DNA of 58,794 nt from Clostridia bacterium (GTDB taxonomy: Bacteria > Bacillota > Clostridia > Oscillospirales > CAG-272), in the NCBI GenBank assembly GCA_017522125.1, contig JAFXAC010000053.1:1-58794 (forward strand), given 5' to 3'. The stretch's first letter is position 1. Each line of letters starts with the position of its first letter. A program made the translations under genes and the position numbers. Positions 43,103 through 57,908 of this stretch are shown here, piece by piece. Below the pieces are notes generated by a model. That model had not been told where the DNA came from. It made no database searches and saw only the letters and a list, made by a program, of their open reading frames with translations.

Positions 43103-43129
43103 AAAAAGCAGGGGTTTCCCTGCTTTTTA
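43103..43129. terminator. Bidirectional terminator at the left border of the AT-rich island
   Basis: AGCAGGG-gttt-CCCTGCT (43107-43124) flanked by A5 and T5. Confidence 0.7.
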
Positions 43130-43160
43130 TATAGCGTAACAAATCGAAAAATCGAACTAT

Positions 43161-44486: not shown

Positions 44487-44540
44487 AAATCATGTGCCTT
44501 TCTTCTGTTGCAAAGCAAGCGTTTGTGTTGAAAGTGCTGC

Positions 44541-45221
44541 TCAAACGTAAATGATGACTTTATTTGTTTTTTTCTTGTGCAGATACAATTTTAGCGGCAA
44601 GCCCGATCTTGCGCTTAATGCCTTTTTCGGACACGCTTCAACGCACCTAAGACACCTTATGCACCTGCCGTTTGTTTTACCCGATTTTATCGCCCCCAAG
44701 GGACAGATCTCCGAGCAAAGCCCACAGGCGATGCATTTTTCGCTTTTCCGTATTTTAAGCCCCAGCCGCCCTCTCAGCCTCGGAAGGATATCAGCCAAGG
44801 GATTTTTATATAGCTTGGGAAGGCTTACGGGAGAAGGGCTTTGTATCTTCTCAACGAGGGGCTTCAATTTATCGAAATCGCAAAAAGCCCCGTCGTTATC
44901 TATATAGGCGTGCTTCGTGGGGATATACGCGCCCGCAACAACGTTTTTTTGATAGCCTTTTTGTATCTCATACAGCACGTTCCCACAGCACATTTTTCCG
45001 TAGGTGGCAACGACCGTCAGATTGTCAACGGATACGCTCTTCAAAAAATCCTTTACGGCATCGGGAATATTTTGGCAGTGGACGGGAAACACGAGAACGA
45101 GATTTTGATAATCCGTATGTGCCGCCTCAATGCTTAAAAGAGGATAGTCCAAGCACTCGGCAAGGTACGCCGCGACCGCCCTGCTCTGCCCCGTATTTGA
45201 ATAAAAAACGGTTGCGTTCAT
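44541..45221 (-). CDS. EFR1-type flavodoxin-like plus 2x[4Fe-4S] ferredoxin
   Basis: N-terminal flavodoxin-like FYSNTGQSR. C-terminal CIACGLCSEICP and CIRCLRCVEACP. ATGA overlap with the upstream PP-loop gene. Confidence 0.65.
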   Translation of the reverse strand: MNATVFYSNTGQSRAVAAYLAECLDYPLLSIEAAHTDYQNLVLVFPVHCQNIPDAVKDFLKSVSVDNLTVVATYGKMCCGNVLYEIQKGYQKNVVAGAYIPTKHAYIDNDGAFCDFDKLKPLVEKIQSPSPVSLPKLYKNPLADILPRLRGRLGLKIRKSEKCIACGLCSEICPLGAIKSGKTNGRCIRCLRCVEACPKKALSARSGLPLKLYLHKKKTNKVIIYV

Positions 45222-46606
45222 TGTTCCAAGTACTCCCGCATTATCGCGCATTCGGGTATTTCCTCAAGCGAAAAGCCGAGCGAGCTCTTAAGCTCCGATA
45301 GCGCTTCCTCGCGGGAGAGATTGTTACTTCGCCCCGCTATCGCGATCTCAAGTGCGCTGAACGGTATCATCGTGCTTTTCATCTCGTAAAATCTTACGAA
45401 TTGCGAATGCTCCTTGCATTTTTCGATTTTACAGCTCGTATGTAATCCCTTATCGGCTTCCTCGGGGGCAACCCAGCCGCATTCACGAATGATGATATCC
45501 TTTATCTTTCTCCACTCGTAAGCACCGCCGCTTATTTCATCAAAATCGACCTGTACGAACGCGGGAATATTGCCCGTGCGCGAGGACGCGCGTATCGCTC
45601 TTTTTAACGGAGTCAGAATATTGGGGGCTTCTCTTATGGCTTCACAGACGTTTTGCACGAGGGGATTTCTGTATCCCGCTAAATTTTTCAATCTGCTGTC
45701 GCCGTATGCAAGCTGCTTCATCGTGGCGAGGGTGTGGAATTGACCCTTTTTCAGCGGTGGGCGAAGCGTTAGCACCCTGCCGACGTTCAAAAGGAAATTA
45801 AGCACCTTGTTTTGCGCAAACGTATAAGCAAATTTGGGCGCCATGTGATTGAAATACAAGCCGAGCATCTGTGCGGGCTCATTTCCCGCAACGAAATACG
45901 GGACCTTGTTTGCAACAAGCTCCGAGTAAAACAAAACGTACGCGAGGGAAGGACAGGCGCAGGTGTTTCCGTTTAAGGAATAGAGCTTTTTATATATCCT
46001 TTTCAGATCGTCGCTTGAAACTCTGCGGCTGATAAACTCCACCGAATCAAGCGTCGCCTTGGCGTTTTCCACGCTCCTTCTCGCGCAGTCGGACATATAG
46101 GGGATCTCCCAAGTGAGCGCCAGAACGCGGAGCTTTAATTTTTTTGAGAGATAGTACAGTAAATACGTGGAATCCTTGCCGCCCGTGTAAAACACGGCAA
46201 CGTCAAAGCGCGATCTTTTTGACCTTGGGAATGTATTTACTATCGGAACGATGCTTTTCAGCTCTTTCGTCTTGTCCGCGGATTGGCAAATGGGGCATTT
46301 CCCCTCTGCGTCGAACTCTATACCCGGGATCATAAAATCGTTTGCAACGCAGGTCTTGCAAAATCTTGCCTCGTCAAAGCCCTTGGGAATCGCTATTTTA
46401 TCCTCACTTTTAACGATCTGCACGCCTATGAGATTTTTTAGTGCATAGGCTTCCTTCGGCGTCAGCTCGCACGGCAGCCTTTCGACGATCGCTCTTTGCT
46501 TTTTGGTAAGCCGAACGGTATTTTTAAACGTGTCGGGCTGATTTCGCAAGCCGTAATATCTCAAAATACTGCCTTCAAGCCTCCATCTGCTTTGGATATC
46601 GTACAT
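45218..46606 (-). CDS. PP-loop ATP pyrophosphatase, N-acetyl-sugar amidotransferase (WbuX)-like
   Basis: Zn-ribbon CKTC...FDAEGKCPIC followed by PP-loop FYTGGKDST. Confidence 0.55.
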   Translation of the reverse strand: MYDIQSRWRLEGSILRYYGLRNQPDTFKNTVRLTKKQRAIVERLPCELTPKEAYALKNLIGVQIVKSEDKIAIPKGFDEARFCKTCVANDFMIPGIEFDAEGKCPICQSADKTKELKSIVPIVNTFPRSKRSRFDVAVFYTGGKDSTYLLYYLSKKLKLRVLALTWEIPYMSDCARRSVENAKATLDSVEFISRRVSSDDLKRIYKKLYSLNGNTCACPSLAYVLFYSELVANKVPYFVAGNEPAQMLGLYFNHMAPKFAYTFAQNKVLNFLLNVGRVLTLRPPLKKGQFHTLATMKQLAYGDSRLKNLAGYRNPLVQNVCEAIREAPNILTPLKRAIRASSRTGNIPAFVQVDFDEISGGAYEWRKIKDIIIRECGWVAPEEADKGLHTSCKIEKCKEHSQFVRFYEMKSTMIPFSALEIAIAGRSNNLSREEALSELKSSLGFSLEEIPECAIMREYLEQ

Positions 46607-46672
46607 AGCAGTTCCTTTCTTCGACAGTTATACTAAACTGCGTAAAATGGGGTTTCGATTAGTCGAAGGGAT

Positions 46673-46951
46673 CTATTTCCCATTTTTAAAGTATCCTTTA
46701 CCCCCAAACGTATCGTACCACAAGGTGAATATCGCGCCGCAGCTTTTGCATTTGATCCTATACCATAGTCCATCCTGCGGCCACTGCTTTACGGTTTTTT
46801 CGGGAACGTTCCCGCCGACGTATTCATAATTTCCATCGGATAATAAGCGCTTGAGCTTTTGTAAAATATCAAAAAATTCGTCGGTGCTTTTGATATGCCT
46901 TACAGCTTCAAGCTTTTGGCATTCATTGCACAGCCTTTTGAAAAAAATCAC
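46673..46951 (-). CDS. 92-aa hypothetical protein with a CxxC...CxxC zinc-ribbon pattern
   Basis: GTG start preceded by GGAGAA. CNEC and CKSC pairs. Confidence 0.5.
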   Translation of the reverse strand: MIFFKRLCNECQKLEAVRHIKSTDEFFDILQKLKRLLSDGNYEYVGGNVPEKTVKQWPQDGLWYRIKCKSCGAIFTLWYDTFGGKGYFKNGK

Positions 46952-47050
46952 AAGTTTTCTCCTTCAGATATAAATGACGCTCTCCTCTCGGCGCAAGAGC
47001 GTAAAAGGTTTAAAAATCGGTTAAAAACGGGTTGGGAAAGCCAAAAGTCA

Positions 47051-47416
47051 TCAAATACCCAAGAAAAAGAAACCATTATATTCGCGTATTGCTTTTTCGA
47101 GCCACTCAGCAAAAACTTCAAATCCTTTGGGTCTGTCATTAACAATTTGTTCCCTAATTGCTAACGTCTGCTCTTTTGTGTAGTAATTGACGCCGTAAGG
47201 GTCAAGCTCTTGCGTTTCCTTGGAAAGAATCGGATTTCGTAAATAATCGCCGTAATTTTCAAAGAAAGCCTTGCCGTTATCAACGCGAACAAGCAAAGAA
47301 TCCTTTTCCTTGAACGAGTATCCCTTTTTTAATATCTTTTTTATATCCCACTCTTTTTTGCAATACTGAAATTCAAAATATGCACTTCCTTGCTTTTCGG
47401 AACACGGTATAAACAT
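47051..47416 (-). CDS. 121-aa hypothetical protein
   Basis: ATG preceded by AGGAGG. No recognisable motif. Confidence 0.5.
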   Translation of the reverse strand: MFIPCSEKQGSAYFEFQYCKKEWDIKKILKKGYSFKEKDSLLVRVDNGKAFFENYGDYLRNPILSKETQELDPYGVNYYTKEQTLAIREQIVNDRPKGFEVFAEWLEKAIREYNGFFFLGI

Positions 47417-47512
47417 AATTACCTCCTACTGATATAAAAGACGCTCCCCTCTCGGCGCAAGTGCGTAAACGGTGTTTCTTGCACCAAAATAAGCGGCGAA
47501 GTACCAAAGCCC

Positions 47513-48274
47513 TCAATGTGCATCATAAGAGAGATTGCACTCCTTGCAAACATCTCGTTCGTGATCCTCGGAAAAGCTTACTCGCTCCATTATCCTTCCG
47601 CATTTAGGGCAGATATGTATCTGCTGATCGCCCACGTTCTCCGCTTTTATGCTTTTTCCGTAATCACATTCCAAATGGTAGTACACAGGATAGCCAAGCT
47701 TTTTGCTCATATATTCCGCAATTTCGATTTCCTGCTTGTTTAATGCAGAATCAAGCTTTACACGCTGATTTCCCGTATAGCGATCGCAAAGGCAGTTCAT
47801 CCAAAGCATATCCATTGATGAGTAATTCTCTTGCCAATTTTGAACCAAGCAATAATCCTCTTGGCTCTCTGCGGGAAAAGGAAGCTCGTAATACGCAATG
47901 GGCTTTCCGCAATCACAGCAAGTAAATACGCTATCTTGGTCGCGGGAATACGTTTGCATTTCAACTGCGCTTCTCTTTTTGCAACCACAATACTGCCCGC
48001 TTTCAACGTTTTCACCCATGGGGGTAAGGATGCAGTCGTATATTTCCTTAATTCTTTTTCGATCCCGTTTTACGTATACCCCATCATATTTTTCATCAAA
48101 GGAATCGGATTTTGGCAACGTTACGTACATTGCGTAATTCTCGTTTTTCGTTAGCGTATAGCTCTTCAAGATCTGCCCGTTTCGCTCAAGCGAGCAGAGA
48201 AAAGACCAGATCAGGTCTTCTGCGTCCTCTTGTGCTATGCTTTGCTTGGCAAACAACTCTATTTTACAAAACAT
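47513..48274 (-). CDS. 253-aa multi-zinc-ribbon protein (DUF2310-like)
   Basis: CCDCG, CPKCG and CKEC ribbons plus an N-terminal NGQIL segment. The family call is tentative. Confidence 0.45.
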   Translation of the reverse strand: MFCKIELFAKQSIAQEDAEDLIWSFLCSLERNGQILKSYTLTKNENYAMYVTLPKSDSFDEKYDGVYVKRDRKRIKEIYDCILTPMGENVESGQYCGCKKRSAVEMQTYSRDQDSVFTCCDCGKPIAYYELPFPAESQEDYCLVQNWQENYSSMDMLWMNCLCDRYTGNQRVKLDSALNKQEIEIAEYMSKKLGYPVYYHLECDYGKSIKAENVGDQQIHICPKCGRIMERVSFSEDHERDVCKECNLSYDAH

Positions 48275-48329
48275 ACTTCCTTCTCCTTTCGGGGCGTTAT
48301 ACTAAACTGATGTAAAATAAACTTTTTAC

Positions 48330-48680
48330 TTATGCGTTTTCCTTCGCGGTGGTGATGGAGGAGATGAGTCTGCGCCTGATCGAACCGCATTTGTTTTTTA
48401 AATCTTTATAGTTCGATTCGGTTATTTTCCCTTTTCTGAAAATCAGTTCAAGCCAATATTCAGTTTCCGAGCACTCCTTTAAAGAGATTTCAAGCTTATT
48501 TATAAAATCTGCCTTACTCTGTGCATATTTTGCTTCGTGAATATTAGCACCTATAGAGGATGAAGAACGGACAATTTGATTGGCGTAAATGGAGCAACCT
48601 TTGATTTCGTCGCATAGGTCTGATATTTGGATAGCAAATTCTATAGCGTCCTCTCGTAGTTGGTTCTTATTGTCTATCAT
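48330..48680 (-). CDS. Four-helix-bundle protein (23S rRNA intervening-sequence protein/Avd family), copy 1
   Basis: 116 aa with family-typical QIVRSSSSIGANI.EA and E..YWLEL motifs. Confidence 0.85.
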   Translation of the reverse strand: MIDNKNQLREDAIEFAIQISDLCDEIKGCSIYANQIVRSSSSIGANIHEAKYAQSKADFINKLEISLKECSETEYWLELIFRKGKITESNYKDLKNKCGSIRRRLISSITTAKENA

Positions 48681-48702
48681 TTTTTACTAATCCTTTATTC
48701 TG

Positions 48703-49015
48703 TCGATATGTTGCTTCGCAACTCGATATCAATACCTTCGGTATGTCGATATGTTGCTTCGCAACTCGATATGTTTTCGCTACGCTCAAACTCGATATAT
48801 GCTCACTTTGTTCGCATTCGATATGTTGCGCTTTGCGCAACGAGAGGCGCTTTGCGCCTTGGCGCTTTTCCCCAATCTCGTTTTGCCGCAAGGCAAAACA
48901 TATCGAGTCCCCGCAGGGGATATATCGAGCCGCCGCAGGCGGCATATCGACCGACGCGTCAGCGGCGCATATCGACATCGAGTCGTCGTGTCAGCGACAC
49001 GACAGACTCGACGTG
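48703..49015. repeat. Heptamer/hairpin array, copy 1 (6x TCGATAT, centre, 4x ATATCGA)
   Basis: TCGATAT at 48703, 48723, 48746, 48766, 48792 and 48818. ATATCGA at 48900, 48922, 48944 and 48969. Intervening palindromes include GTTGC-ttc-GCAAC and GTTTTGCC-gcaa-GGCAAAAC. Confidence 0.9.
48959..49015 (-). pseudogene. Orphan duplicate of the last 18 codons plus stop of rlmD (HVESVVSLTRRLDVDMRR*)
   Basis: 57/57 nt identical to 50335-50391. No upstream coding continuation: homology stops at 49015/49016. Confidence 0.85.
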
Positions 49016-49080
49016 GGGCAAGAGTACAAAAGGTATATTTTCATGCCAAAAACGGGGGTTGTAAAGCCAAAAGGTATATT

Positions 49081-49746
49081 TTAATTGTACTCTTCTACAT
49101 CACCAAGTAATTTAATAATTCCATTGTCCACAAGTATAGCACCTTTCATAATAGCAGTTGCATATACCGTTTTCTTGCGTTCTTCAAGAACCTTTTGAAT
49201 TGCTGCCTTTTGAGCGTCTTTCCCCTCATAATGCACTTCCAAATAAAAGTCATTCAAATACGGTAATCCCTCATAATATTTGAACTCTGGATAATCATCG
49301 TCGGGGGAAAGATGATATTCAGCAAGTTGAATAACGGCTCCCGCACTATAGCCCATAACAATCCCCTTATGCTTCATCAAAACATCTTTTAGATCAAATT
49401 CCTTGATGCGATCCATCATCCTATCTGGCAAGCCGCCGAGAAAATAGAGGATATCCGCATTTTCAATCTTTTCCTTTGCAGATTCCTTTGTATCCGTAAA
49501 ATAGTTGATAAACGAAACATTCTCCTCGGAGATTCCGTATGCAGTAAACCCACTAACAATACCTTCGTAAAACCTACCATTGCTTTTGCTATATAAGCAA
49601 TTCCAATCCGCAAGAGATTTAGCTTTACTGTCACGAAAAGAGAACGCAATTACCACTACTCTGTGAGTAGGTTGCATATATTTTTTTAATTCATCATAGA
49701 GCCATGGAGCATCTATATCGTAACCCTCAAGTAAAATATTAATCAT
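49081..49746 (-). CDS. Peptidase S51 (dipeptidase E-like, class I glutamine amidotransferase-like) protein
   Basis: ILYFLGG, GYSAGA nucleophile-elbow-like motif and a downstream His. ATGA overlap with four-helix-bundle copy 2. Confidence 0.6.
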   Translation of the reverse strand: MINILLEGYDIDAPWLYDELKKYMQPTHRVVVIAFSFRDSKAKSLADWNCLYSKSNGRFYEGIVSGFTAYGISEENVSFINYFTDTKESAKEKIENADILYFLGGLPDRMMDRIKEFDLKDVLMKHKGIVMGYSAGAVIQLAEYHLSPDDDYPEFKYYEGLPYLNDFYLEVHYEGKDAQKAAIQKVLEERKKTVYATAIMKGAILVDNGIIKLLGDVEEYN

Positions 49747-50099
49747 TGATTTTGATTCTCCTTTGCGGTGGTGATGGAAGCGATAAGTCTGCGCCTAATT
49801 GAGCCGCATTTGTTTCTTAGCTCTTTGTACGTGACCTTGCTCATTTTTCCTTTTCTGAAAATCAATTCAAGCCAATATTCAGTTTCCGAGCACTCCTTTA
49901 AAGAGATTTCAAGCTTATTTATAAAATCTGCCTTGCTCTGTGCATATTTTGCTTCGTGAATGTTTGCTCCGATAGATGATGAAGAACGGACAATTTGATT
50001 GTCGTAAACGGAGCAACCTTTGATTTCGTCACATAGGTCTGATATTTGAATTGCAAATTCAATCGCGTCCTCTCGGAGTTGGTTCTTATTGTCTATCAT
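49743..50099 (-). CDS. Four-helix-bundle protein (23S rRNA IVS protein/Avd family), copy 2
   Basis: 118 aa, about 90% identical to copy 1 with many synonymous differences. Confidence 0.85.
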   Translation of the reverse strand: MIDNKNQLREDAIEFAIQISDLCDEIKGCSVYDNQIVRSSSSIGANIHEAKYAQSKADFINKLEISLKECSETEYWLELIFRKGKMSKVTYKELRNKCGSIRRRLIASITTAKENQNQ

Positions 50100-50121
50100 T
50101 TTCTACTAATCCTTTATTTTG

Positions 50122-50391
50122 TCGATATGTTGCTTCGCAACTCGATATGTTTTCGCTGCGCTCAAACTCGATATATGCTCACTTTGTTCGCATTCGATAT
50201 GTTGCGCTTTGCGCAACGAGAGGCGCTTTGCGCCTTGGCGCTTTTCCCAAATCTCGTTTTGCCGCAAGGCAAAACATATCGAGTCCCCGCAGGGGATATA
50301 TCGAGCCGCCGCAGGCGGCATATCGAGCGACGCGTCAGCGGCGCATATCGACATCGAGTCGTCGTGTCAGCGACACGACAGACTCGACGTG
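50122..50391. repeat. Heptamer/hairpin array, copy 2 (4x TCGATAT, centre, 4x ATATCGA), overlapping the rlmD 3' end
   Basis: TCGATAT at 50122, 50142, 50168 and 50194. ATATCGA at 50276, 50298, 50320 and 50345. The rlmD stop TGA (50335-50337) lies in a hairpin loop. Confidence 0.9.
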
Positions 50392-51726
50392 TCCCGTTCT
50401 CGGAAACAGATCAACGGGAAGGACGGTGCCGATGCTCCAGCCGAGTTGGTAAAGGTGAGCAAGATCGCGTGCGAGCGTTGCGGGGTTGCAGGAGATATAC
50501 ACTATCTTCTTTACGCCTGCCCTATCGAGCGTATCAAGCAGCTCGGCGGCACAGCCCTTGCGCGGCGGGTCAAGCACGACCACGTCGGGAAGCTCACCCG
50601 CAACGCCGAGAAGCTCGGACGCGCCAAGCGCCGAGTCGGCGCACAAAAAGCGCGCGTTCTCAATGCCCGCGCGTGCGGCGTTAGCCACGGCGCACTCAAC
50701 CGCCTCGGGCACTATCTCAACGCCCGTAAGCCGTCCTACGCGCCCCGCCATAGAAAGTCCTACGCTTCCGATGCCGCAATAAAGGTCAAGAAGATGCTCG
50801 TCGCCGCGAAGTCCCGCCATATCAGCGGCGGTGCGGCAAAGAAGCTCGGCGGCATCGTGATTTACCTGATAAAACGCCGCGGGCGCGACGTCAAGCTCAA
50901 CGCCGCAAAAAACGTCCCTTATCGACGCCTTACCCGCCACGGTGATATATTCATTGCCAAGTATTACGTTGGAGTTTTTCGTATTTACGTTAAGTACCAC
51001 GCCCACGATGCGCGAAAACGTGCGCATCAGCGCCTCGGCAAGCTCGTCGGCGTGCGGCAAGCTCCTGCCCGCTATGACGATGCAAACGAGTATCTCGCCG
51101 TCCTCGCCCGCGCCCGTGCGCAGATAGAGGTGGCGCAAAAGTCCCTTGCCGCTTTCCTCGTCGTATACGGAAATCCCCTTTTTATATGCGAAATCGCAAA
51201 CGAATTTCGCTATCTTGCCGAATATCTCGGGCTGTAAGGGGCAGGATTCGTCGCCCGTAACGCGATGTGTTCCCGAGGCGTAAAAGCCCGCGCGAATGCC
51301 GCCCTCGTATGCCGCAAAGCGATATTGCGCCTTATTGCGATAGCCCCAGACCTCACCCGTGTGCGCGGTTTCGAGCACCTCAACGTGCGAAAGCCCCGCC
51401 TTATCAAGTTCGGAGCGCACGTTCTGCCGTTTCAGCTCAAGCTCGTGAGAGTATTTTATAAATCTGTACGCACAGCCGCCACAGCTTGCGGGGGCGGTGC
51501 ATCTGTCACTGCTCTCGCGCAACGGCGAGGGGGTGACGACCTTCATAAGCCTTCCGACGAGATAACCCTTGGTTATCTTTATTATCTTCACCTCTGCCCT
51601 CTCGCCGCTGACTGCGCCGTGGGTGAACACGACCTTGCCGTCCTCCGTCCTGCCTACTCCGTAGCCAAGATTGCTGACGGCGGTAACGTCGATTGTAACG
51701 ACGTCGTTTTTCTTTATATCAGACAT
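50335..51726 (-). CDS. rlmD: 23S rRNA (uracil-C5)-methyltransferase, RlmD/RumA family
   Basis: TRAM domain, Fe-S Cys cluster (CTAPASCGGC), SAM fold (DLYCGIG), nucleophile region YISCNP and terminal FPRTGHVE motif. Start taken at MSDIKK (51726). Confidence 0.85.
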   Translation of the reverse strand: MSDIKKNDVVTIDVTAVSNLGYGVGRTEDGKVVFTHGAVSGERAEVKIIKITKGYLVGRLMKVVTPSPLRESSDRCTAPASCGGCAYRFIKYSHELELKRQNVRSELDKAGLSHVEVLETAHTGEVWGYRNKAQYRFAAYEGGIRAGFYASGTHRVTGDESCPLQPEIFGKIAKFVCDFAYKKGISVYDEESGKGLLRHLYLRTGAGEDGEILVCIVIAGRSLPHADELAEALMRTFSRIVGVVLNVNTKNSNVILGNEYITVAGKASIRDVFCGVELDVAPAAFYQVNHDAAELLCRTAADMAGLRGDEHLLDLYCGIGSVGLSMAGRVGRLTGVEIVPEAVECAVANAARAGIENARFLCADSALGASELLGVAGELPDVVVLDPPRKGCAAELLDTLDRAGVKKIVYISCNPATLARDLAHLYQLGWSIGTVLPVDLFPRTGHVESVVSLTRRLDVDMRR

Positions 51727-52399
51727 AGTATTCCTCGCCGTTGTCAAGGCACAGGCAGGCAAGTCTGCCGCCGCGTGCCGCACCGCAGTCAATGGCTATA
51801 AAGCCCTCGCCGCGATATATATCGCCGTTGCACGAAAAATTCTCGGTGGTGGGCGCGTGTCCGACTATCATAGTAGCCTCGCCTACTGCGCACACGTCGG
51901 CACCGTCGGCAGAGAAATCTGCCCAATCGTAATCCTCAAGGTCCTTGTCAGCCTCATAGCCCTTTATTCCCGAATGAACGAGAACGTAGTCCCTGCCGCC
52001 GACGTGCAGAGTTTCGTAGGGTGCCATATCCGCAAGGTAGTCGATAACGCCCTCGCGCATATCCGCGTCAAGCTCGCGGAAGCCGTCAAGCGTGCGCTGT
52101 CCGCCCATTGCTATCCATTTTTGCATTTTTGCGATGAAGTCCGCGTCGGGTGCTTTTCCGTCCTTGAGCATTTCCGAAAAGCCCTCAAGCATCTCGGCGG
52201 CAAGCCTATCGTGCTCGCCCGCGACGGGCCAGACGTTTTCGCGCATACTGAGGTCGCACACAAGCTCAATAGGCTCGTCCCCTATATCAACGATATCGCC
52301 AAGCACGAACATAACGTCGTTCTTGGAAAAATTTATCTGCTCAAGCAGTGCGGTAAAATCGGCGTAGCAGCCGTGAATATTTGATACAACGTAGGTCAT
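51719..52399 (-). CDS. Metallophosphoesterase (PPP-family Ser/Thr phosphatase/ApaH-like)
   Basis: SNIHG, GDIVDIG and VHSG motifs. ATG 52399 preceded by GGAGGAG. Confidence 0.75.
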   Translation of the reverse strand: MTYVVSNIHGCYADFTALLEQINFSKNDVMFVLGDIVDIGDEPIELVCDLSMRENVWPVAGEHDRLAAEMLEGFSEMLKDGKAPDADFIAKMQKWIAMGGQRTLDGFRELDADMREGVIDYLADMAPYETLHVGGRDYVLVHSGIKGYEADKDLEDYDWADFSADGADVCAVGEATMIVGHAPTTENFSCNGDIYRGEGFIAIDCGAARGGRLACLCLDNGEEYYV

Positions 52400-52415
52400 T
52401 TTATCTCCTCCAAAA

Positions 52416-53180
52416 TCATATAGCGGTAAATGGTGAATAATCAAGTATTTCTACCGTAACGCCCGCATCGGCGGAGCGTACGATATCGGCAAGCCTTTGA
52501 CAAACGGGGTTTTCGGTATGATAATGCCCCGCCTCGATAAGCGCGATCCCCTGCCCCTCGGCGTAGCCCCAAGCGTGATGCTTGAACTCGCCGCCTATCA
52601 AAACGTCCGCACCGAGCGCGGCGGCGGGAGCGATAAAATCCGTGGTTGCGCCGCCCGCAACCGCAACGCGGCGAACCTTTTTGTCGGGGCAATTTGAATA
52701 TTTTACGCTCCGCGTTTTAAGCGTGCGCGAGGTGCGCTCGGCAAGCTCAAAAAGGCTTACCTCCTCGTCGAGCGTGCCTATCCTGCCGAGGTCGGGCACC
52801 TCCTCGTCACCAAATGGGACGGCATTGCAAATGCCCAAAAGACGGCAGAGGATATCGTTCACTCCGTCCTTTGCGGCATCAAGGCGCATATGAAACGAAA
52901 ACGCGGCAACCCCCGCGCCGTTAAGCTCGTCAAGCCATTTTGCGGGCGGCGTTCCCTCAATCGCCTCTCCGTATATAAGGGGATGATGGGTAAGAAGCAC
53001 GTCAAAGCCGCCGCTTATCGCCCTTTCCACAGCGGCGCGGTACGGGTCAAGCGCGACAAGTACGCGCCCCACCTCTCGGTCGGGGTGCGGCATAGCCTGC
53101 GCCCCGTCGGTGTCTATCTCCTCGGAGTAGCGGGGCGGAAGTATTTTTTCTATATATTCGTAAAGCTGTTTAACAGTCAT
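52416..53180 (-). CDS. Nif3-like dinuclear metal centre protein
   Basis: THHP and GHY.TE motifs. Classic trmK-nif3 gene pair. Confidence 0.8.
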   Translation of the reverse strand: MTVKQLYEYIEKILPPRYSEEIDTDGAQAMPHPDREVGRVLVALDPYRAAVERAISGGFDVLLTHHPLIYGEAIEGTPPAKWLDELNGAGVAAFSFHMRLDAAKDGVNDILCRLLGICNAVPFGDEEVPDLGRIGTLDEEVSLFELAERTSRTLKTRSVKYSNCPDKKVRRVAVAGGATTDFIAPAAALGADVLIGGEFKHHAWGYAEGQGIALIEAGHYHTENPVCQRLADIVRSADAGVTVEILDYSPFTAI

Positions 53181-53881
53181 TTTTTCTCCTTTACGGCGGC
53201 AAGGATATCAGCCGCCAGCTTTCTTTCGGGCGTTGCGTCGCGTGATGCGCTTTCAAGCCCGCGCGCACGGGTAAGAAGCACCTCCGCGGCAAAATCGGCA
53301 AGCTTTTTAAGCTTCTCTCCGCCGCGTGCGATATTGTGTCTGCCGAGTATCAGCTCGACCTCGCCGTATTCCTCACGCACTCCCGTATATTCGGCGGCGA
53401 TTATCTGGTATATCCTGCCGTCGCCAAGCCTTTCGTCCTCGGCAAGAGATTCGTCTATTATTGAAAATCCGCCCTCGGTAAGACCGCGGCGAAGCTCGGC
53501 GGCGCGCGTCATCGGCTGCATTATAAGCCGCACGCCCTCGCGCTTAGCAAGCTCTGATGCGCTGACTATGCGCCATATCAGCTCGCCGCCCATTCCGAGA
53601 ACGTACACGTCCTCGGGTGCGTATTCCTCAAGCCCCGAAAGTCCGTCTGTGCGCACGGCGGCAATTTTTTCGCCAAGCCCCGCGCCCGATATGTTTATCC
53701 TCGCGCGAGTTATCGGTCCTTCGTTTATATCCGAGGCAACGCCGCGCGGCGCAATTCCCTCTCCCACAAGGTATATGGGAAGGCTTGCGTGGTCCGTTCC
53801 GACGTCGGCAAAGGCTTTGCCACGGCGCGCAAACGACGCGGCGGCGGCAAGGCGCGAGTCAAGCTGTATTTTTTTCATCAT
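53177..53881 (-). CDS. trmK: tRNA (adenine22-N1)-methyltransferase
   Basis: SRL..AA.F.....ADVGTDHA.LPIYL N-terminus. Start ambiguous between 53881 and 53878. Confidence 0.75.
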   Translation of the reverse strand: MMKKIQLDSRLAAAASFARRGKAFADVGTDHASLPIYLVGEGIAPRGVASDINEGPITRARINISGAGLGEKIAAVRTDGLSGLEEYAPEDVYVLGMGGELIWRIVSASELAKREGVRLIMQPMTRAAELRRGLTEGGFSIIDESLAEDERLGDGRIYQIIAAEYTGVREEYGEVELILGRHNIARGGEKLKKLADFAAEVLLTRARGLESASRDATPERKLAADILAAVKEKK

Positions 53882-53934
53882 TTTTCCCGTAATTTGTTTT
53901 TTGGGGTGCTGCAAGCAGCACCCCATGATATCAA

Positions 53935-54138
53935 TTATGCTTTTGCGGCAAAGTAATCGTTGATAGCCTTTACAAGCTCATCAGCGTTGGTGCCGTGAAC
54001 GGCGCAAGCCTGCTCGATGGTCTCACCGCGTGCGGCGGGGCATCCGAGGCAATGCATTCCGATAGCAAAAAAGAACTGCGCGGTATCAACGTCAAAATCA
54101 AGAACGTCACCGATAATGCTTTCCTTAGTAACTTTCAT
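53935..54138 (-). CDS. DUF1858 / hybrid-cluster-associated redox disulfide domain protein (67 aa)
   Basis: MHCLGCP motif. ATG 54138 preceded by AAGGAGG. The longer ORF to 54258 has no RBS and an implausible N-terminus. Confidence 0.7.
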   Translation of the reverse strand: MKVTKESIIGDVLDFDVDTAQFFFAIGMHCLGCPAARGETIEQACAVHGTNADELVKAINDYFAAKA

Positions 54139-54326
54139 AATTACATCCTCCTTAAGTATAAAGCGTATATAATAATTATACCCATATCCCTCGCATTTGT
54201 CAAGGAAAAGAGTAAAGTTAAGATTTATTTTATAAAATTTGTATTTTCCTCTTGCCAAAGCGTTGAATAATATGTTATACTATAATGTAAAATAATTTCG
54301 TATGCCCATTGTGGCGGGAGGTTCTT

Positions 54327-55436
54327 TTGATAGTTGCACTTGAAGAAGCAAAATATAAATTAACGAATATGCGCCCCGTGCTGAAGGAGCTTGGCGACGC
54401 ACTGCGCGTAAGCGAGCTTTCTGCGACCGCCGAGGAGCTTGAAAAGCAGACGCTTGAGCCTGATTTCTGGTCCGATCAGGAAAATTCCACGAAGGTGCTT
54501 CAGACCATAAAGCAAGCCAAGGACACCGTAGCGGACTACAACGCGCTCGTTGAGCGTCTTGAGGACGCTATCGCGCTTGCCGAGCTTGCCATCGAGGAAA
54601 ACGACGAAAGCTGTGTTCCCGAGGTCGAGGCAGAGCTTGAGGAAATAATAGCCGCCGAGGAGAAAAAGAGGATCTCCATTCTCCTGTCGGGCGAGTACGA
54701 CCGCAACAACGCGATCATCTCCTTCCACCCGGGTGCGGGCGGCACGGAGGCACAGGACTGGGCGCTTATGCTCTACCGTATGATCACCCGTTGGGCGGAA
54801 AAGAACGGCTTCAAGGTAAAGCTGACCGATTGGCTTGACGGCGAGGAAGCGGGCATCAAGAGCGCGACCATTATGGTCGAGGGCACGAACGCATACGGTT
54901 ACCTCAAGAGCGAGAACGGCGTTCACCGCCTTGTCCGCGTTTCCCCCTACGATTCCGCAGGACGCCGCCATACGTCCTTTGCCTCTATCGAGGTAATGCC
55001 CGAGTTTGACAAGCTTGACGAGATAGTTATCCGCGACGAGGATTACGATTTTATCGCATTCCACTCCAGCGGCGCGGGCGGTCAGAACGTTAACAAGGTA
55101 TCCTCAGCCGTTCGCCTTATCCACAAGGCAACGGGAATAGTAGTAACCTGCCAGACCGAGCGCTCACAGCTCCAAAACAAGGAAACCGCGATGAAGATGC
55201 TCAAATCCAAGCTCATGGAGATAAAGATACGCGAGCGTCTTGACACTATCGAGGAAATTCAGGGTAACAAAACTAATATCGAGTGGGGCTCGCAGATACG
55301 CTCGTACGTATTTATGCCCTACACTCTCGTAAAGGACAACAGAACGTCCTTTGAAACAGGTAATATAGCGGCTGTTATGAACGGCGAGATCGACGGCTTT
55401 ATCAACGCGTATCTGAAGCATATTTCAAAGCAGTAA
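54327..55436 (+). CDS. prfB: Peptide chain release factor 2, encoded without the programmed +1 frameshift
   Basis: GGQ motif (SGAGGQNVNKV) and RF2-type loop RVSPYDSAGRRHTSF. Continuous ORF. TTG 54327 lies 5 nt after GGGAGG. Confidence 0.85.
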   Translation: MIVALEEAKYKLTNMRPVLKELGDALRVSELSATAEELEKQTLEPDFWSDQENSTKVLQTIKQAKDTVADYNALVERLEDAIALAELAIEENDESCVPEVEAELEEIIAAEEKKRISILLSGEYDRNNAIISFHPGAGGTEAQDWALMLYRMITRWAEKNGFKVKLTDWLDGEEAGIKSATIMVEGTNAYGYLKSENGVHRLVRVSPYDSAGRRHTSFASIEVMPEFDKLDEIVIRDEDYDFIAFHSSGAGGQNVNKVSSAVRLIHKATGIVVTCQTERSQLQNKETAMKMLKSKLMEIKIRERLDTIEEIQGNKTNIEWGSQIRSYVFMPYTLVKDNRTSFETGNIAAVMNGEIDGFINAYLKHISKQ

Positions 55437-55459
55437 GCTACACGGTGAAAGGAAAAAAT

Positions 55460-55885
55460 ATGGAAAACAAGAAAGAAAGCTTTAACAAAATATTTCTTGC
55501 AGTAACCGCTTGCACGGCGTTTATAGGCGCTATAGTTGCCGCAGGCAAGGTTATTTTCGGAAAAGAATCTCACACTGATGACAAGAAAGGCGAGGACAGC
55601 ACGAGCCTTTTGGTAGCCATCTGCGTTCTGCTTGTCGGTGTCGGCACGCTTGTCGGCGGAGTGCTTTTTGCCCTTCGCTCCATTCGCAAGGTCAGGGGAG
55701 GATACATTATCGACCTCTTTGACCGTGATGAGTACGACGTTATCTCTCCCGAGGAGGAGGACAACTTCGAGGTGCTTATCCGCGGCGAGCTTCGCCCGAG
55801 TGGCGACGATGATTGCGCGGCTCCGAAGCTTAGCGACGATATCGTTCCCGTTGACGAGGACACGAACGAGGACAACTACAACTAA
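55460..55885 (+). CDS. Small membrane protein with an acidic C-terminal tail
   Basis: Two hydrophobic helices, then a D/E-rich tail. ATG 55460 preceded by GAAAGGAAAAA. Confidence 0.5.
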   Translation: MENKKESFNKIFLAVTACTAFIGAIVAAGKVIFGKESHTDDKKGEDSTSLLVAICVLLVGVGTLVGGVLFALRSIRKVRGGYIIDLFDRDEYDVISPEEEDNFEVLIRGELRPSGDDDCAAPKLSDDIVPVDEDTNEDNYN

Positions 55886-55896
55886 TATCAAGCATC

Positions 55897-55924
55897 AAAA
55901 GCGGCGGAAATTCCGCCGCTTTTG
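55897..55924 (+). terminator. Intrinsic terminator after 55460..55885
   Basis: AGCGGCGGA-aat-TCCGCCGCT followed by TTT. Confidence 0.75.
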
Positions 55925-55938
55925 CTTAACCTTGTACT

Positions 55939-55965
55939 AAAAAAGCCCGCCCCAAAGGGGCGGGC
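55939..55965 (-). terminator. Intrinsic terminator after the SipW-signal protein gene
   Basis: Minus strand GCCCGCCCC-ttt-GGGGCGGGC followed by T6. Confidence 0.75.
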
Positions 55966-56003
55966 AAGCTTTGTTCGGGTTTAACCGAACTTTGCGCGGC
56001 TAA

Positions 56004-57446
56004 TTATCTGCCGTCAAAATCCTTGAAGGAGTTGGGATTACCGTTGATCTGCCAATCTACGTTGGTCTCGTTGATGGTGTAAGAGTCGTTCTTGTATATC
56101 AAGTGGAACTCTCTTGCAGTAACACCATTAGTATATACAGCATTAACTACGGTATCCTCGAGGTTGATAACAACGTTCTCGGCGGGAGTCTCAACTACGA
56201 TTACAGCAAAGCGGTTTGCATCAACAGGAGCAGACTTATTAATACCGGTGAGGGTACTGTTCTTAACGTTTACAACGGTGCCTTCAGACCAGATATTGAG
56301 TGCGGCATAGCCGGTGATCTCACTATCCTCGATATTGATAACAACTTCCTTGTTATCGCTTGCAACGTTGATTGCATAGTAAGAATTGTTAACGATGGTG
56401 GAGTTCTTGATGGTTACGTCAAGACCGTCGTTACCGAAGAAGGAAATACCTCTGGTATACGTAAGGTTGTTATCAACAACAAGATTGATGTTGTCGATTA
56501 CGAGAAGGGCATCAGTCTGATCCGCAACATTAACTACGCGAGTACCGTTAGCACCGCTGTAGATGGTGGATTCGCCGTCACCGATGATGGTGAGGGTACC
56601 GTTAACCTCGAGCTGCTCGGGAAGCTCGATGTCGTTGTTGATAAGAACGGTGGTAGCGCCGCCCTTAACAGCCTCAACGATCTCTGCGGTATTGGATACT
56701 ACAGGGAACTCTGCGTCTGCATCATACTGATCGTCGAAGTCGTCTTCCTCATAAGTCCACTGAGTAGCTACGAGAGTAAGACCGAACTCGATCTCGGGCT
56801 GATTTGCAAAGGTATCATCCTCGTTAGTGAGGAAGTTTGCGGTGTTGTCTACCCAAGTAGGCATGTGAACAACGATCTCGAAGATCTCCTCATCTTCGCC
56901 TGCATCAGCTCCGTCATTGGGAACGAGAGTATTGATGCCGAAGTTGGGGTTATCAACGGTCATGTCGTTGGTAGCCTCGTTGAGCTTGGTGGTTGCGAAG
57001 GGGATGTACTCGTCACGAGTGGTAGCAGCTCCCTCGGAAACAAGACCGGTGAAAAGGTAGTCGGAGAGCATGAACTCAGATCCGAAAACGTTAATGCCAG
57101 CCTTCTCGGAAAGGATGTTGATACCAAGCTTATACTTGAGTGCGAGAGTTCCTACGTTACGTACGCGGAAAGCTACAACCTCAGTATAGCCGGGCTCGTA
57201 GAGGGCGTCTTCGTTGAAGAGGTTGGTGTCTTCATTAACGGGAATCCACTCTCCAAGCTCGCCGTTTTCGTCGTATACGGCGTAATCGAGTTCAATATCG
57301 AGGTTGCCGGAAACTATTCTGTTCTTGCTGGCAACAACGGTATCGGTGAACCACGCGTAAGTGGTTCCAAGGAGCATCGAGAAGCAGATAATGATTGCCA
57401 TTACGCTTGCAAGAAGAGCTCTCTTAGTGGTCTTGCGATTCGTCAT
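56004..57446 (-). CDS. Secreted protein with a SipW-cognate (TasA/camelysin-type) signal peptide and a beta-helix-like repeat body
   Basis: KRALLASVMAIIICFSMLLGTTYAWFTD N-terminus. Repetitive N/V/T-rich C-terminal half (NNL..., VVN...). ATG 57446 preceded by AAGGAGG. Confidence 0.7.
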   Translation of the reverse strand: MTNRKTTKRALLASVMAIIICFSMLLGTTYAWFTDTVVASKNRIVSGNLDIELDYAVYDENGELGEWIPVNEDTNLFNEDALYEPGYTEVVAFRVRNVGTLALKYKLGINILSEKAGINVFGSEFMLSDYLFTGLVSEGAATTRDEYIPFATTKLNEATNDMTVDNPNFGINTLVPNDGADAGEDEEIFEIVVHMPTWVDNTANFLTNEDDTFANQPEIEFGLTLVATQWTYEEDDFDDQYDADAEFPVVSNTAEIVEAVKGGATTVLINNDIELPEQLEVNGTLTIIGDGESTIYSGANGTRVVNVADQTDALLVIDNINLVVDNNLTYTRGISFFGNDGLDVTIKNSTIVNNSYYAINVASDNKEVVINIEDSEITGYAALNIWSEGTVVNVKNSTLTGINKSAPVDANRFAVIVVETPAENVVINLEDTVVNAVYTNGVTAREFHLIYKNDSYTINETNVDWQINGNPNSFKDFDGR

Positions 57447-57865: not shown

Positions 57866-57908
57866 ATGAATGCGTACTGTAGGATTTTATCATCTGGCAG
57901 AGACGCAG

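Follow-up and report, generated by a model that had tools for sequence, protein, structure and literature searches.

The four-helix-bundle (4HB) proteins of PF05635 (S23p, "four helix bundle protein") form a very large family for which we know of no function outside the DGR protein Avd and, to our knowledge, their recurrent siting in structured insertions has been without explanation since 1993. In the 23S rRNA intervening sequences (IVSs) of Leptospira and Coxiella, a PF05635 gene lies within a sporadic, horizontally acquired, highly structured insertion, and the Coxiella IVS carries three to four heptamer repeats directly upstream of its S23p ORF (PMC4990558). The S23p/Avd-type fold, Avd being the DGR homologue, forms homopentamers (PMC4990558, PMC10053308), and a motif GxxRxxxSxxxNxxE has been described for S23p-type 4HB proteins (PMC3936711). 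Also comparable are elements that accrete at gene ends; in streptococci, rumA is a documented hot spot for such integration (PMC7168690). Units of the ICE, IME and CIME type (rumA, rplL, fda) and of the SCC type (rlmH/orfX) stack behind an rRNA methyltransferase gene, each incoming unit regenerating the gene end while the displaced ends remain as direct repeats, and many such units lack a recombinase. SCC elements, for instance, integrate at rlmH.

Here we describe an array of alternating heptamers and hairpins between rlmD and a 4HB gene of a Clostridia bacterium; the window analysed is the whole of contig JAFXAC010000053.1, 58,794 nucleotides in length. As in the IVSs, a PF05635 gene accompanies a structured element, but the element lies outside any rRNA gene, at the 3' end of a protein gene or, elsewhere, of a tRNA gene, and its heptamers alternate with hairpins in two opposed arms. 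Membership of the 23S rRNA IVSs (helix 25 or 45) was considered and rejected, the window containing no rRNA and the flanks being rlmD and cargo. The features of the island are as follows.

48330-48680, minus strand: second 4HB gene, 116 aa, its DNA 89-90% identical to that of the first
48703-48879, minus strand: L arm and centre of the second array, with six heptamers (48703-48824)
48880-48975, plus strand: R arm of the second array, with heptamers at 48900, 48922, 48944 and 48969
48976-49015, minus strand: orphan rlmD 3' end (TH_A), 40/40 identical to 50352-50391, with no rlmD ahead of it
49081-49746, minus strand: cargo gene of the peptidase S51 family, 221 aa, its start overlapping the 4HB stop
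49743-50099, minus strand: 4HB gene, 118 aa, PF05635 / S23p / Avd-like (E 3e-22)
50122-50200, minus strand: L arm of the first array, four heptamers reading ATATCGA on the minus strand
50201-50255, no strand assigned: centre, consisting of the hairpin at 50201-50217 and a 38-nt GC-rich stretch
50256-50351, plus strand: R arm of the first array, four ATATCGA (50276, 50298, 50320, 50345) with flush hairpins between them
50352-50391, minus strand: terminal hairpin TH_B, whose 14-bp stem is the last rlmD codons (HVESVVSLTRRLD...)
50335-51726, minus strand: rlmD, 23S rRNA uracil-5-methyltransferase, 463 aa from the ATG at 51726, the target gene

The array was noticed in a sequence-only reading, which described four TCGATAT heptamers (plus strand, 50122, 50142, 50168 and 50194) converging on four ATATCGA heptamers within 50122-50351, and these positions proved exact. 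All of the hairpins that it named were located, including GTTGC-ttc-GCAAC at 50129-50141, GTTGCGC-ttt-GCGCAAC at 50201-50217, those at 50256-50275, 50283-50297 and 50305-50319, and the outer hairpin GTCGTGTC-agc-GACACGAC inside 50352-50391. A second copy lies at 48703-49015, with 6+4 heptamers (48703-48975), the L arm having six because a 43-nt insertion added two heptamer and hairpin modules. The reading was also right that all plus frames, three in number, and a single minus frame stay open across the array. The window contains 39 heptamers against 9.05 +/- 3.1 expected (maximum of 17 in 100 shuffles). The fold of 50100-50400 has an energy of -130.6 kcal/mol on the minus strand and -130.5 kcal/mol on the plus strand, far more stable than controls (z = -7.3 and -7.4, respectively). 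The plus-strand loops of the R arm are GCAA, GCA, GCA and GTCA; the L arm presents GAA, GCA and AAA loops together with tandem G.A mismatches on the minus strand, and its 3' end, ATATCGA-CAAAA, lies 22 nt ahead of the 4HB ATG (50099). The claim that the element resembles no named RNA agrees with a search of the whole window against Rfam, which gave no match at the gathering threshold; a permissive search of 48600-50450 (E<=10) gave snoRNA and CRISPR-DR matches at chance level and nothing else.

The same architecture recurs in no fewer than 55 further genomes (MAGs of Clostridia), as well as in a few phage contigs; a genome scan (at least 120 loci), a viral scan and the window together yielded at least 85 recognised arms in at least 61 loci, some genomes carrying paralogous arrays (L117, L099, L104). 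Literature searches for heptamer or hairpin/heptamer arrays found nothing relevant, and the arrays apparently constitute a widespread, undescribed family in gut Clostridia. Across these many homologues the heptamers are kept and the hairpin sequences are not, as the sequence-only reading had proposed. Specifically, among the matches listed, 211 of 230 spacers are flush hairpins (shuffle mean 10.6, maximum 19), and these 230 spacers comprise 190 distinct sequences. RNAalifold identified 20 pairs with compensatory changes, all of them in local hairpins. On homologues, fold energy and conservation pattern, each a point on which that reading could have failed, the results therefore stand with it. 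Sister arrays of the same plan use other heptamers, namely ATATCAC, ATATCGC, AATTCAT, ATTTCAT, ACATCAT, ACTTCAC and ATTTAGC.

The hairpins are also strand-specific. Among the matches listed there are 101 loops of the GNA (56) and GNNA (45) classes against a single loop of the complementary classes, and stem mismatches are predominantly G.A/A.G (45) and G.T (14) as opposed to A.C (5). Loops and mismatches of this kind distinguish one strand from the other and thus indicate that the working form of the array is single-stranded, on the strand that reads hairpin-ATATCGA-hairpin. C-G-closed GNA triloops, like GNYA loops and tandem G.A mismatches, are a usual mark of stable mini-hairpins made of DNA. 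Because no promoter-like site is predicted in the centre of either array copy of the window, an RNA role for both arms is hard to explain; the centre of L059 contains TTGCCT-17-TATCAT, and the same -35/-10 pair recurs, by eye, in several other elements.

The arms are independent modules. Solo arms occur at seven loci (L007, L025, L037, L052, L055, L082, L092) and divergent pairs at four (L034, L064, L115, L152), while two loci combine non-complementary heptamers (ATTTCAT with ATATCGA in L025, ATATCGA with AATTCAT in L055). The centre is where R and L arms reassort among related loci; L085 and L336, for example, have a common L arm, but their R arms and centres are unrelated. The orientation of arms relative to neighbouring genes follows no consistent rule (same/opposite 24, opposite/opposite 21, same/same 19, opposite/same 7).

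The first array covers the final 19 rlmD codons, the stop being at 50335-50337, and supplies the C-terminal tail of RlmD; the second half of TH_B is the reverse complement of the half that codes for HVESVV, and the same arrangement exists in four other rlmD lineages (L075, L085, L099, L336). As expected of elements accreted at a 3' end, a displaced end is found, the 40 nt at 50352-50391 and 48976-49015 being identical. The sequence-only reading had overlooked that the right end of the array is rlmD C-terminal coding sequence, that the second copy holds an orphan duplicate of that end, and that each array heads a mobile cassette. Elsewhere, host-specific orphan ends follow near-identical cargo (L334, L339, L335/L245, L085), and 16 contigs encode an identical S51 protein, set behind other arrays and no fewer than three distinct rlmD genes and three 4HB alleles. 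The same rlmD cassettes are accordingly present in different hosts, with presence/absence polymorphism, and the L245 strain departs from the window 14 nt past the S51 stop. The window and L085 share 83% DNA identity over array and 4HB gene (92% for the 4HB protein), and both RlmD tails read RRLDVDMRR, though the RlmD proteins are just 47% identical. Because the outer hairpin encodes the RlmD C-terminus, orphan ends lie downstream and identical cargo follows different rlmD genes, we read each array as the head of a cassette that moves horizontally and has inserted where rlmD ends.

Insertions of an array alone, with flanking target duplications, are seen at a phage gene end (L152, 17 bp) and at tRNA-Lys (L059); over 36 convergent arrays, target-site duplications are mostly at chance level, the exceptions being L152 (17 bp), L087 and L059 (12 bp). 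The 1465-nt contig L337 bears an exact terminal repeat of 46 nt, which would fit a circular or tandem cassette of 1419 nt. No third orphan rlmD end was found in the window's island at up to 12 mismatches. Gene tables and profile annotation revealed no recombinase or integrase within the cassettes, the sole tyrosine recombinase seen (274 aa) lying about 7 kb off, just outside the window, among phage genes; clustering of the flanking ORFs of 23 arrays, with transposases and integrases in view, returned only 4HB and rlmD as recurrent families. A fusion of a 4HB start to a GDSL lipase in L242 was set aside as a likely assembly junction, since its break corresponds to 49960, exactly where L243 ends.

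The genes adjacent to the arrays belong to PF05635. The window's two 4HB proteins score 79.3 and 82.1 bits (cut-off 33.8), a relative of solved structure is PDB 2RLD (E 6.5e-24; 5 chains), and the motif RxxxSxxxNxxE is present as R38, S42, N46 and E49. There is no obvious match between a pentamer and four sites. A HEPN assignment of PF05635 found no support in the literature searched, PADLOC defence models gave no meaningful match to the island proteins, and in BLAST searches against annotated phages and plasmids the 4HB gene body alone was matched, never the array. The link between array and 4HB gene, proposed from the window alone, is repeated across loci: about 20-30 nt separate the end of the L arm from the 4HB ATG in the window and in L075, L085, L093, L099, L065, L336 and many metagenome loci, and one arm by itself stands upstream of a 4HB gene in L253, L256, L262 and L266. 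In 24 of 28 cases the nearest 4HB relative shares the heptamer class, identity being 77% within a class as opposed to 51-56% between classes; the window and L340 have the S51 cargo in common, yet differ in both 4HB protein and heptamer. This association could be mere co-inheritance of adjacent DNA. More distant 4HB genes carry, in place of such arms, convergent sets of four to six tandem heptamers, and contiguous tandem heptamers also flank arrays in Christensenella. In this tandem lineage the heptamers are separated from the 4HB ATG by a TATAAT box, read by eye in the L320 sequence, so that the heptamers need not be part of the 4HB mRNA. Many arrays have no 4HB gene inside the 8 kb retrieved (e.g., L117, L059, L067), and for these a trans-acting supply must be assumed.

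Set against the described systems, the array shares several traits and departs from each, in keeping with the earlier opinion that it does not follow REP/BIME, CRISPR or attC logic. Like attC sites, it conserves structure above sequence, uses 7-nt words, folds in a strand-specific, single-stranded manner and delimits promoterless cassettes; in place of one long imperfect hairpin, however, it has many small ones, and it occupies the leading rather than the trailing edge of the cassette. An attC assignment was rejected, since RYYYAAC/GTTRRRY core sites are absent, there are seven to nine separate perfect mini-hairpins, and the gene tables around rlmD contain no intI and no integrase within the cassettes. 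REP/BIME (REPIN) elements with their RAYT transposases similarly combine a short word with a hairpin, occur as solo or inverted units and follow an intergenic single-strand logic (PMC6006769). Their hairpins are conserved, whereas here only the word (ATATCGA or a variant) is kept, in four units per arm and with no RAYT gene among the recurring flank ORFs of 23 arrays, and the diversity of spacers described above speaks against membership. CRISPR arrays have repeats of 23-50 nt, unique non-palindromic spacers and cas genes; the repeats here are 7 nt and the spacers palindromic. The repeat RNAs of the TRAP/GAG, ToxI/ToxN and CsrB/CsrA systems wrap or titrate oligomeric proteins and resemble the array in presenting a fixed number of identical single-stranded words near the gene of a small oligomeric protein. 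In the array, by contrast, each spacer is a hairpin in its own right, the two arms occupy opposite strands and protein binding is only predicted. DGRs likewise rely on a GC hairpin, strand-specific and sited at a target gene's 3' end. Their Avd protein has the same fold as the 4HB protein (PMC10053308), but no reverse-transcriptase family is found among the called genes of 40335-58794 and the window has no TR/VR-like repeat, its direct repeats of at least 40 nt being the array/4HB duplication and one 51-nt pair, with no others. Finally, relative to ICE, IME, CIME and SCC elements, the units here are tiny (0.3-1.5 kb), no integrase is seen, and the heptamer-hairpin array heading each unit has no counterpart.

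How the array works has been considered in several ways. It is conceivable, though on the doubtful side, that the arms are folded-ssDNA recombination sites, akin to attC or arm-type sites, for a recombinase or transposase acting in trans, which the heptamers would bind, with the 4HB gene merely a frequent cargo. Such sites would account for the stacked cassettes with their orphan target ends and target duplications, for the constant adjacency of the R arm to a target gene 3' end, for the reassortment of arms at the centre, for loops and mismatches that suit stable DNA mini-hairpins, for an orientation independent of transcription and for the terminal repeat of L337; yet no recombinase gene recurs near arrays (the only one being some 7 kb away), most arrays have no detectable flanking duplications, and the linkage of L arm to 4HB gene, with its matching switch of heptamer, would be left unexplained. 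The sequence-only reading had envisaged pairing of left with right heptamers to give a ladder of four 7-bp helices separated by junctions; within a single transcript, an rlmD 3' UTR or a 4HB 5' UTR, such a rod with four-way junctions would serve as an RNA processing or regulatory structure. Folding by minimum free energy gives this rod for the window copy whichever strand is taken (z about -7.3), and RNAalifold returns it as the consensus of 14 homotypic elements. Arrays linked to a 4HB gene mostly converge and repeat one heptamer in their two arms, no terminator separates rlmD from the 4HB gene, and the Coxiella S23p ORF occupies the loop of an IVS structure excised by RNase III (PMC4990558). 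It is nevertheless not the conserved fold of the family: solo, divergent and heterotypic arms exist, the window's own second copy has 6+4 heptamers, and the loop features place the arms on opposite strands rather than in one transcript. Since the heptamer pairs never vary, covariation lends them no support. The ladder is for these reasons improbable as a general mechanism, and what endures of that interpretation is a real, structured and conserved element linked to 4HB genes.

About equally improbable is a selfish REP- or MITE-like repeat, mobilised by an HUH (Y1) or other transposase that would recognise the heptamer and the foot of the hairpin. The arrays are dispersed, intergenic and low in copy, with paralogous copies in one genome and occurrences in phage contigs, and a single-strand-specific hairpin beside a short word recalls REP with its GTAG (PMC6006769); against this, REP hairpins are conserved within a family and here all differ, the GT[AG]G word is absent, no tnpA-like gene is among the recurring flank genes, unit number is fixed at four and the arm types are distinct. 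Still less probable is a cassette-borne cluster of hairpins that insulates, terminates or stabilises RNA, the heptamers being RNase sites or incidental, despite nine stable hairpins in a row, arrays that immediately follow gene 3' ends, and an outer hairpin that is often a genuine terminator (L059, L067, L043). No terminator is predicted between rlmD and the 4HB gene or in and around the window's arrays, terminators downstream of arms show no decisive directional bias (of 78, 21 read with the functional direction and 15 against it), and the 8-10 exact heptamers with their concerted switches demand a sequence-specific partner. The least probable explanation makes the array a double-stranded operator or a set of iterons, with a duplex-binding protein on the heptads. 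Heptads of 7 bp are what the omega repressor recognises, and both the direct and inverted sets of a 7-bp repeat and the contiguous tandem heptamers of the distant 4HB lineage and of Christensenella would suit such binding; the heptamers of accepted arms, however, are spaced 14-46 bp apart (20-26 bp in the window), neither contiguous nor in any constant period or helical phase, and arbitrary palindromic spacers with strand-specific loops and mismatches have no role in a duplex. The duplex iterons of the sequence-only reading, and an omega-type heptad operator with them, were consequently given up.

The reading that we tentatively place first, while granting that it may well be wrong, joins single-stranded display arms, a mobile-cassette edge and a putative docking platform for the 4HB protein. 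Each arm would be a strand-specific, single-stranded display of four identical 5'-ATATCGA-3' heptamers clamped by unrelated, very stable mini-hairpins, which may differ so that each folds locally, leaving every 7-nt word unpaired and the words at even intervals. With the outer hairpin, the arms, which sit on opposite strands and run outward from a short centre, would make up the attachment-proximal border of a small horizontally mobile gene cassette; such cassettes would integrate at the rlmD 3' end and elsewhere at tRNA or other gene ends, each newcomer rebuilding the gene end and pushing the older one downstream. The heptamers are predicted docking sites for the oligomeric S23p/Avd-type 4HB protein, which is encoded right behind the L arm and changes along with the heptamer. 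The protein-array complex may act on a single strand, either the rlmD-to-cassette transcript or an ssDNA intermediate, with cassette control or mobilisation as the putative outcome. The architecture, the covarying hairpins, their strand specificity, the independence of the arms, the 4HB linkage and the stacked cassettes with orphan rlmD ends are shown; we infer the 4HB protein as binder, the choice between RNA and ssDNA as substrate, and a role in mobility or regulation. Possible, but rather unlikely, is the further-reaching idea of integron-like building of gene arrays, in which small promoter-poor cassettes would be caught through a folded single-stranded site of two opposed arms, at the hairpin-forming rlmD 3' end or at tRNA genes, with a ring-forming 4HB protein as the heptamer-specific docking factor.

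The integron-like reading, if true, would provide the first function for PF05635 outside DGRs, and would suggest why PF05635 genes sit in structured insertions such as the rRNA intervening sequences. In either case PF05635 is now tied to a defined and easily recognised cis element, and as the words of that element switch with the 4HB protein, a direct binding test is possible. The design may also be of interest for nucleic-acid engineering, identical words being insulated by non-identical hairpins with extra-stable GNA/GNRA loops. Within the organisms themselves, the arrays appear to mark very small mobile cassettes, a class not recognised before, that stack at rlmD and at tRNA genes, and because their carriers are abundant uncultured gut and rumen Clostridia and the phages of these, they may open a new way to follow gene flow through these communities.

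Inspection of the sequence confirmed the convergent array of four plus four heptamers that the sequence-only reading had claimed at 50100-50391, including its heptamer positions, centre and hairpins. This array (array B, 50122-50391), beside rlmD, is composed of the following parts, given in forward-strand coordinates.

50122, 50142, 50168 and 50194: TCGATAT heptamers, the left (L) arm
50201-50217: hairpin next to the L arm, followed by a 38-nt GC-rich centre
50256-50275: second hairpin, between the centre and the ATATCGA set
50276, 50298, 50320 and 50345: ATATCGA heptamers, the right (R) arm
50352-50391: outer terminal hairpin (TH) of 40 nt

A second array (array A, 48703-49015) carries 6+4 heptamers, and both arrays are parts of a duplicated unit of ~700 bp consisting of an array and a gene for a four-helix-bundle protein (4HB), the copies being 98% identical in the array part and 89% in the 4HB gene part. 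Read along the minus strand, rlmD is followed by array B, 4HB (118 aa), a peptidase S51 cargo gene (S51), array A, 4HB (116 aa), DUF2310 and others. The window holds 39 heptamers versus 9.05 ± 3.1 expected; 21 further TCGATAT/ATATCGA copies lie outside both arrays, against ~9 expected for the whole window, a mild genome-wide excess. GC content is ~40% across ~42.8-50.2 kb versus 56-60% in rlmD and beyond. The genes of this low-GC island downstream of rlmD (42800-50200; about 38-48%) are small, unrelated and uniformly on the minus strand (DUF4304, a 4Fe-4S protein, a 462-aa protein, 92-aa and 121-aa ORFs, DUF2310, two 4HB genes and S51). Two of its intergenic gaps contain a 51-nt direct repeat (46959-47009 and 47423-47473; 88% identical), which reads on the minus strand as a hairpin, TTTATATC and a ribosome-binding site, and lies just upstream of the 92-aa (46673-46951) and 121-aa (47051-47416) ORFs; it may be a shared expression module or the remnant of an array end.

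When one genome of each species was scanned for the pattern, at least 120 loci were listed, approximately half of them true arrays. Among the matches listed, hosts are gut and rumen Clostridia MAGs (Oscillospiraceae, Acutalibacteraceae, Christensenellaceae, Ruminococcaceae and unclassified Clostridia), and the ++++---- plan is typical; arrays also occur in three IMG/VR phage contigs. Of the 230 inter-heptamer spacers (190 distinct sequences) in 85 arms from 61 loci, which include viral loci and the window, 211 form hairpins flush with the heptamers, while shuffled spacers yielded 10.6 on average and 19 at most. When 14 elements were aligned on their heptamers and analysed with RNAalifold, compensatory double changes were found at 20 base pairs, all within local hairpins. 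The earlier proposal of a conserved heptamer among variable hairpins thus withstood scrutiny, since a family of homologous arrays exists elsewhere, its hairpins exceed shuffled controls and covary, and only the heptamer is constant. In one phage contig (L152; L-numbers denote other loci or contigs compared with the window), two intergenic gaps 3 kb apart each contain an array (1428-1600 and 4352-4500): one is a divergent ATATCGA pair, the other a convergent ATATCGC array on whose flanks 17 bp from the end of the upstream gene are duplicated. In Christensenella/Christensenellaceae (L027, L068, L104, L035, L037), contiguous 7-mer runs without hairpins (ATTCCGC/ATTCCAA, GGAATTC, CAACTTT) directly flank the heptamer-hairpin arrays.

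The hairpins distinguish the two strands. On the strand reading hairpin-ATATCGA-hairpin, loops are GAA, GCA, GTA, GCAA, GTAA, GTCA, GTTA and similar, such that distinct hairpins on this favoured strand include 56 GNA and 45 GNNA loops, with the complementary TNC/TNNC occurring once. Stem mismatches comprise 45 tandem G.A/A.G and 14 G.T, versus 5 A.C and 2 pyrimidine-pyrimidine. Because loops and mismatches are both strand-asymmetric, a duplex protein site is ruled out as their source, and a duplex operator is accordingly a most improbable explanation of the arrays; their working form is, firmly, a strand-specific, single-stranded structure. The favoured strand may be RNA or ssDNA: its GNA triloops with C-G closure and its GNYA loops are closer to those of stable DNA mini-hairpins, and its GNRA loops, G.U pairs and tandem G.A pairs are classical in RNA as well. 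In convergent arrays, the right arm's favoured strand is the top one and the left arm's the bottom one, so that each arm points away from the centre in the 5' to 3' direction. The window's favoured strands also fold slightly better (-70.7 vs -67.9 kcal/mol for the R arm, -29.0 vs -25.4 for the L arm). Among the loci listed, arm orientation bears no fixed relation to neighbouring genes or to downstream terminators. No promoter-like site was found in the centre of the window's array; some relatives have such sites (TTGCCT-17-TATCAT in L059). Solo R-type arms in two different MAGs lie downstream of a common hairpin motif, gagacaaggggacggttctRttgtctt (L007 ~3150-3200; L055 ~1690-1730), preceded in L007 by a good TTGCAA-17-TATAAT promoter.

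The heptamer itself exists in several specificities, a point that the following arrays establish firmly.

Alternative heptamers in arrays of the same architecture
ATATCAC: L047, L327
ATATCGC: L152
AATTCAT: L055, L245, L335, L340
ATTTCAT: L025
ACATCAT: L104, L278, L281
ACTTCAC: L085 (second array), L334
ATTTAGC: L087
ATATCAT: L273, L274, L277
ATTTCGN: L279

Most conform to A-N-W-T-C-R-N on the favoured strand, and every copy within one array changes together; such concerted switching calls for a sequence-specific trans factor with several specificities.

R and L arms are clearly independent, distinct types. The R arm consists of a first hairpin (often GTTGCC...GGCAAC), three heptamer-plus-hairpin units, a heptamer and the long TH, while the L arm has four heptamers with three hairpins between, one usually a tandem-G.A motif (GTTTGAGC-nnn-GCGAAAAC), and ends in ATATCGA-CAAAA. 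Within one subfamily, the innermost left-arm heptamer is followed by 12 nt (GAKAT plus 7 nt) that are perfectly complementary to a stretch made up of the final R-arm hairpin's 3' half and ATATC (12/12 in 10 elements with four different 7-mers, 10/12 in a fifth variant, L018), and this persistence across different 7-mers indicates alternative pairing or duplication; the window's subfamily lacks it.

The array-associated 4HB protein belongs to PF05635: its nearest solved structure is 2RLD (five chains; E 6.5e-24), and it bears RxxxSxxxNxxE, the motif of that family (PMC3936711). Across 80 metagenome loci, nearly all relatives of at least ~50% identity have an array directly upstream, the L arm ending about 20-30 nt before the ATG, and heptamer class tracks 4HB clade (nearest neighbour of the same class in 24 of 28). 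The window and L340 have the downstream S51 in common and differ together in 4HB allele and heptamer, and L085 and L336 match in L arm and 4HB, their R arm, centre and TH being unrelated; it follows that L arm and 4HB move as one block, and the linkage of the L arm to PF05635 genes is secure. For many arrays, the 8 kb retrieved contains no 4HB gene. More distant relatives (47-54% identity, human gut) have no hairpins and instead carry 4-6 contiguous heptamers (TCTTCAC / GTGAAGA) immediately behind a tRNA gene terminator, arranged as two convergent sets; in the Coxiella 23S intervening sequence, the S23p ORF is closely preceded by three or four heptamer repeats (PMC4990558), and heptamer sets are thus a general companion of the 4HB family. 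At the tandem-heptamer loci upstream of 4HB (L296, L319, L320, L321, L284, L303) the 3' half of the tRNA terminator is repeated after the first heptamer block, and L303 and L298 hold two such modules in tandem. In the window the 4HB stop overlaps the S51 start (ATGA, 49743-49746), so that the two are translationally coupled. An ORF joining the first ~47 codons of 4HB to a GDSL lipase (L242, 10662-11723) is probably an assembly junction at repeated 4HB sequence, since the break corresponds to window 49960, also the end of contig L243.

Arrays sit, on firm grounds, at the attachment end of stacked mobile cassettes. The outer hairpin at 50352-50391 encodes RlmD HVESVVSLTRRLD, with the rlmD stop codon placed within the first R-arm hairpin. 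In five rlmD lineages (36-48% protein identity, three loci measured) the codons of the conserved HVE.VV motif recur in reverse complement as the tail behind it, and the palindrome therefore dictates the tail; RRLDVDMRR-stop is common to the window and L085, yet their RlmD proteins are only 47% identical, while array plus 4HB share 83% DNA identity and the 4HB proteins 92%. An exact 40-nt orphan copy of the rlmD end, with no rlmD in front, occurs at 48976-49015. L334 reads different rlmD, TH, ACTTCAC array, the same S51 gene, orphan end (HVESVVCLTRRYDK-stop), host gene, with 68% nucleotide identity at the rlmD 3' end and 97% in S51. Different orphan ends follow S51 in L339 (HVESVACLARKTS-stop), L335 (HVEFVVCLKRQIQQ-stop) and L245 (NVESVVCLKRQIQQ-stop), the last two continuing into an AATTCAT array and other genes, and the second array of L085 opens with an orphan end bearing an in-frame stop. 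A strain with identical rlmD and 4HB-S51 ceases to match the window 14 nt beyond the S51 stop, and an identical S51 protein is recorded in 16 contigs in several different contexts. Array-only units occur at the phage gene end in L152, with its flanking duplication, and at the 3' end of tRNA-Lys in L059, where an orphan acceptor end and the old terminator follow. Suggestive only is L337 (sample ERZ28653803), a 1465-nt contig with identical 46-nt direct repeats at its two ends, which implies that the unit TH-array(6+4)-4HB-S51 is circular or tandem and 1419 nt long. As judged from these sequences, the cassettes follow the pattern of site-specific accretion at the end of a conserved gene.

Further features of the island were observed. 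Its content varies among strains with identical rlmD (L245/L333 carry NERD, a 550-aa protein and others instead), and the two copies of the window's duplicated 4HB-gene segment are spaced 1419 nt apart, exactly as long as the L337 unit. The stretch separating the S51 stop from the orphan rlmD end contains two direct copies of a 15-nt motif, caaaaggtatatttt (aaaatataccttttg when read on the minus strand; 49027-49041 and 49068-49082). This motif precedes the orphan end also in L334, L335 and L339 and, as a single copy, in L245, and possibly marks the S51 cassette's trailing edge. The sole recombinase seen near the locus is a 274-aa tyrosine recombinase (Phage_int_SAM_1 + Phage_integrase) ~7 kb from rlmD, just past the window's right end (L240 1970-2794 / L243 1-3758), adjoining P22-type portal and capsid genes.

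Our tentative reading, put forward as a real possibility, is that the heptamers would dock an oligomeric 4HB protein, the hairpins acting as mutually orthogonal clamps that keep the heptamer words single-stranded, and that the complex would control or mobilise the cassette. The 4HB protein is proposed as reader because of its linkage, the class matching, the companion heptamers and the homopentameric ring formed by S23p (PMC4990558), of which Avd is the homologue in diversity-generating retroelements (DGRs) (PMC10053308). The main rival, which we consider unlikely, holds that a candidate recombinase reads the arrays as folded ssDNA and that 4HB is merely frequent cargo; however, a search of the cassettes found none that encodes a recombinase.

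The ladder of left heptamers paired to right ones, as first proposed for single-stranded RNA or DNA, is indeed the minimum free energy fold of the window copy, but it fails as a general conserved structure: arms occur solo (L007, L025, L037, L052, L055, L082, L092), in divergent pairs 5-15 nt apart (L034, L064, L115, L152) or beside arms with non-complementary heptamers (ATTTCAT beside ATATCGA in L025, ATATCGA beside AATTCAT in L055), and the unequal 6+4 heptamers of array A also count against it. Heptamer-to-heptamer pairs give no covariation signal because they never vary. We accord a ladder RNA very little probability, and regard a REP-like element and an insulator as similarly remote prospects. 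Tested against REP/BIME, attC, CRISPR, iterons and DGRs, the array fails defining tests of each.

No match to the array architecture was found in Rfam or in annotated phage and plasmid collections, nor any description of it in the searchable literature. The behaviour of the island resembles known accretion at rumA or rlmH, rumA being a known hot spot for site-specific accretion in streptococci (PMC7168690). Unlike that behaviour, the cis element itself has no described counterpart, and these arrays constitute, firmly, a new and widespread element of invariant heptamers and covarying hairpins.
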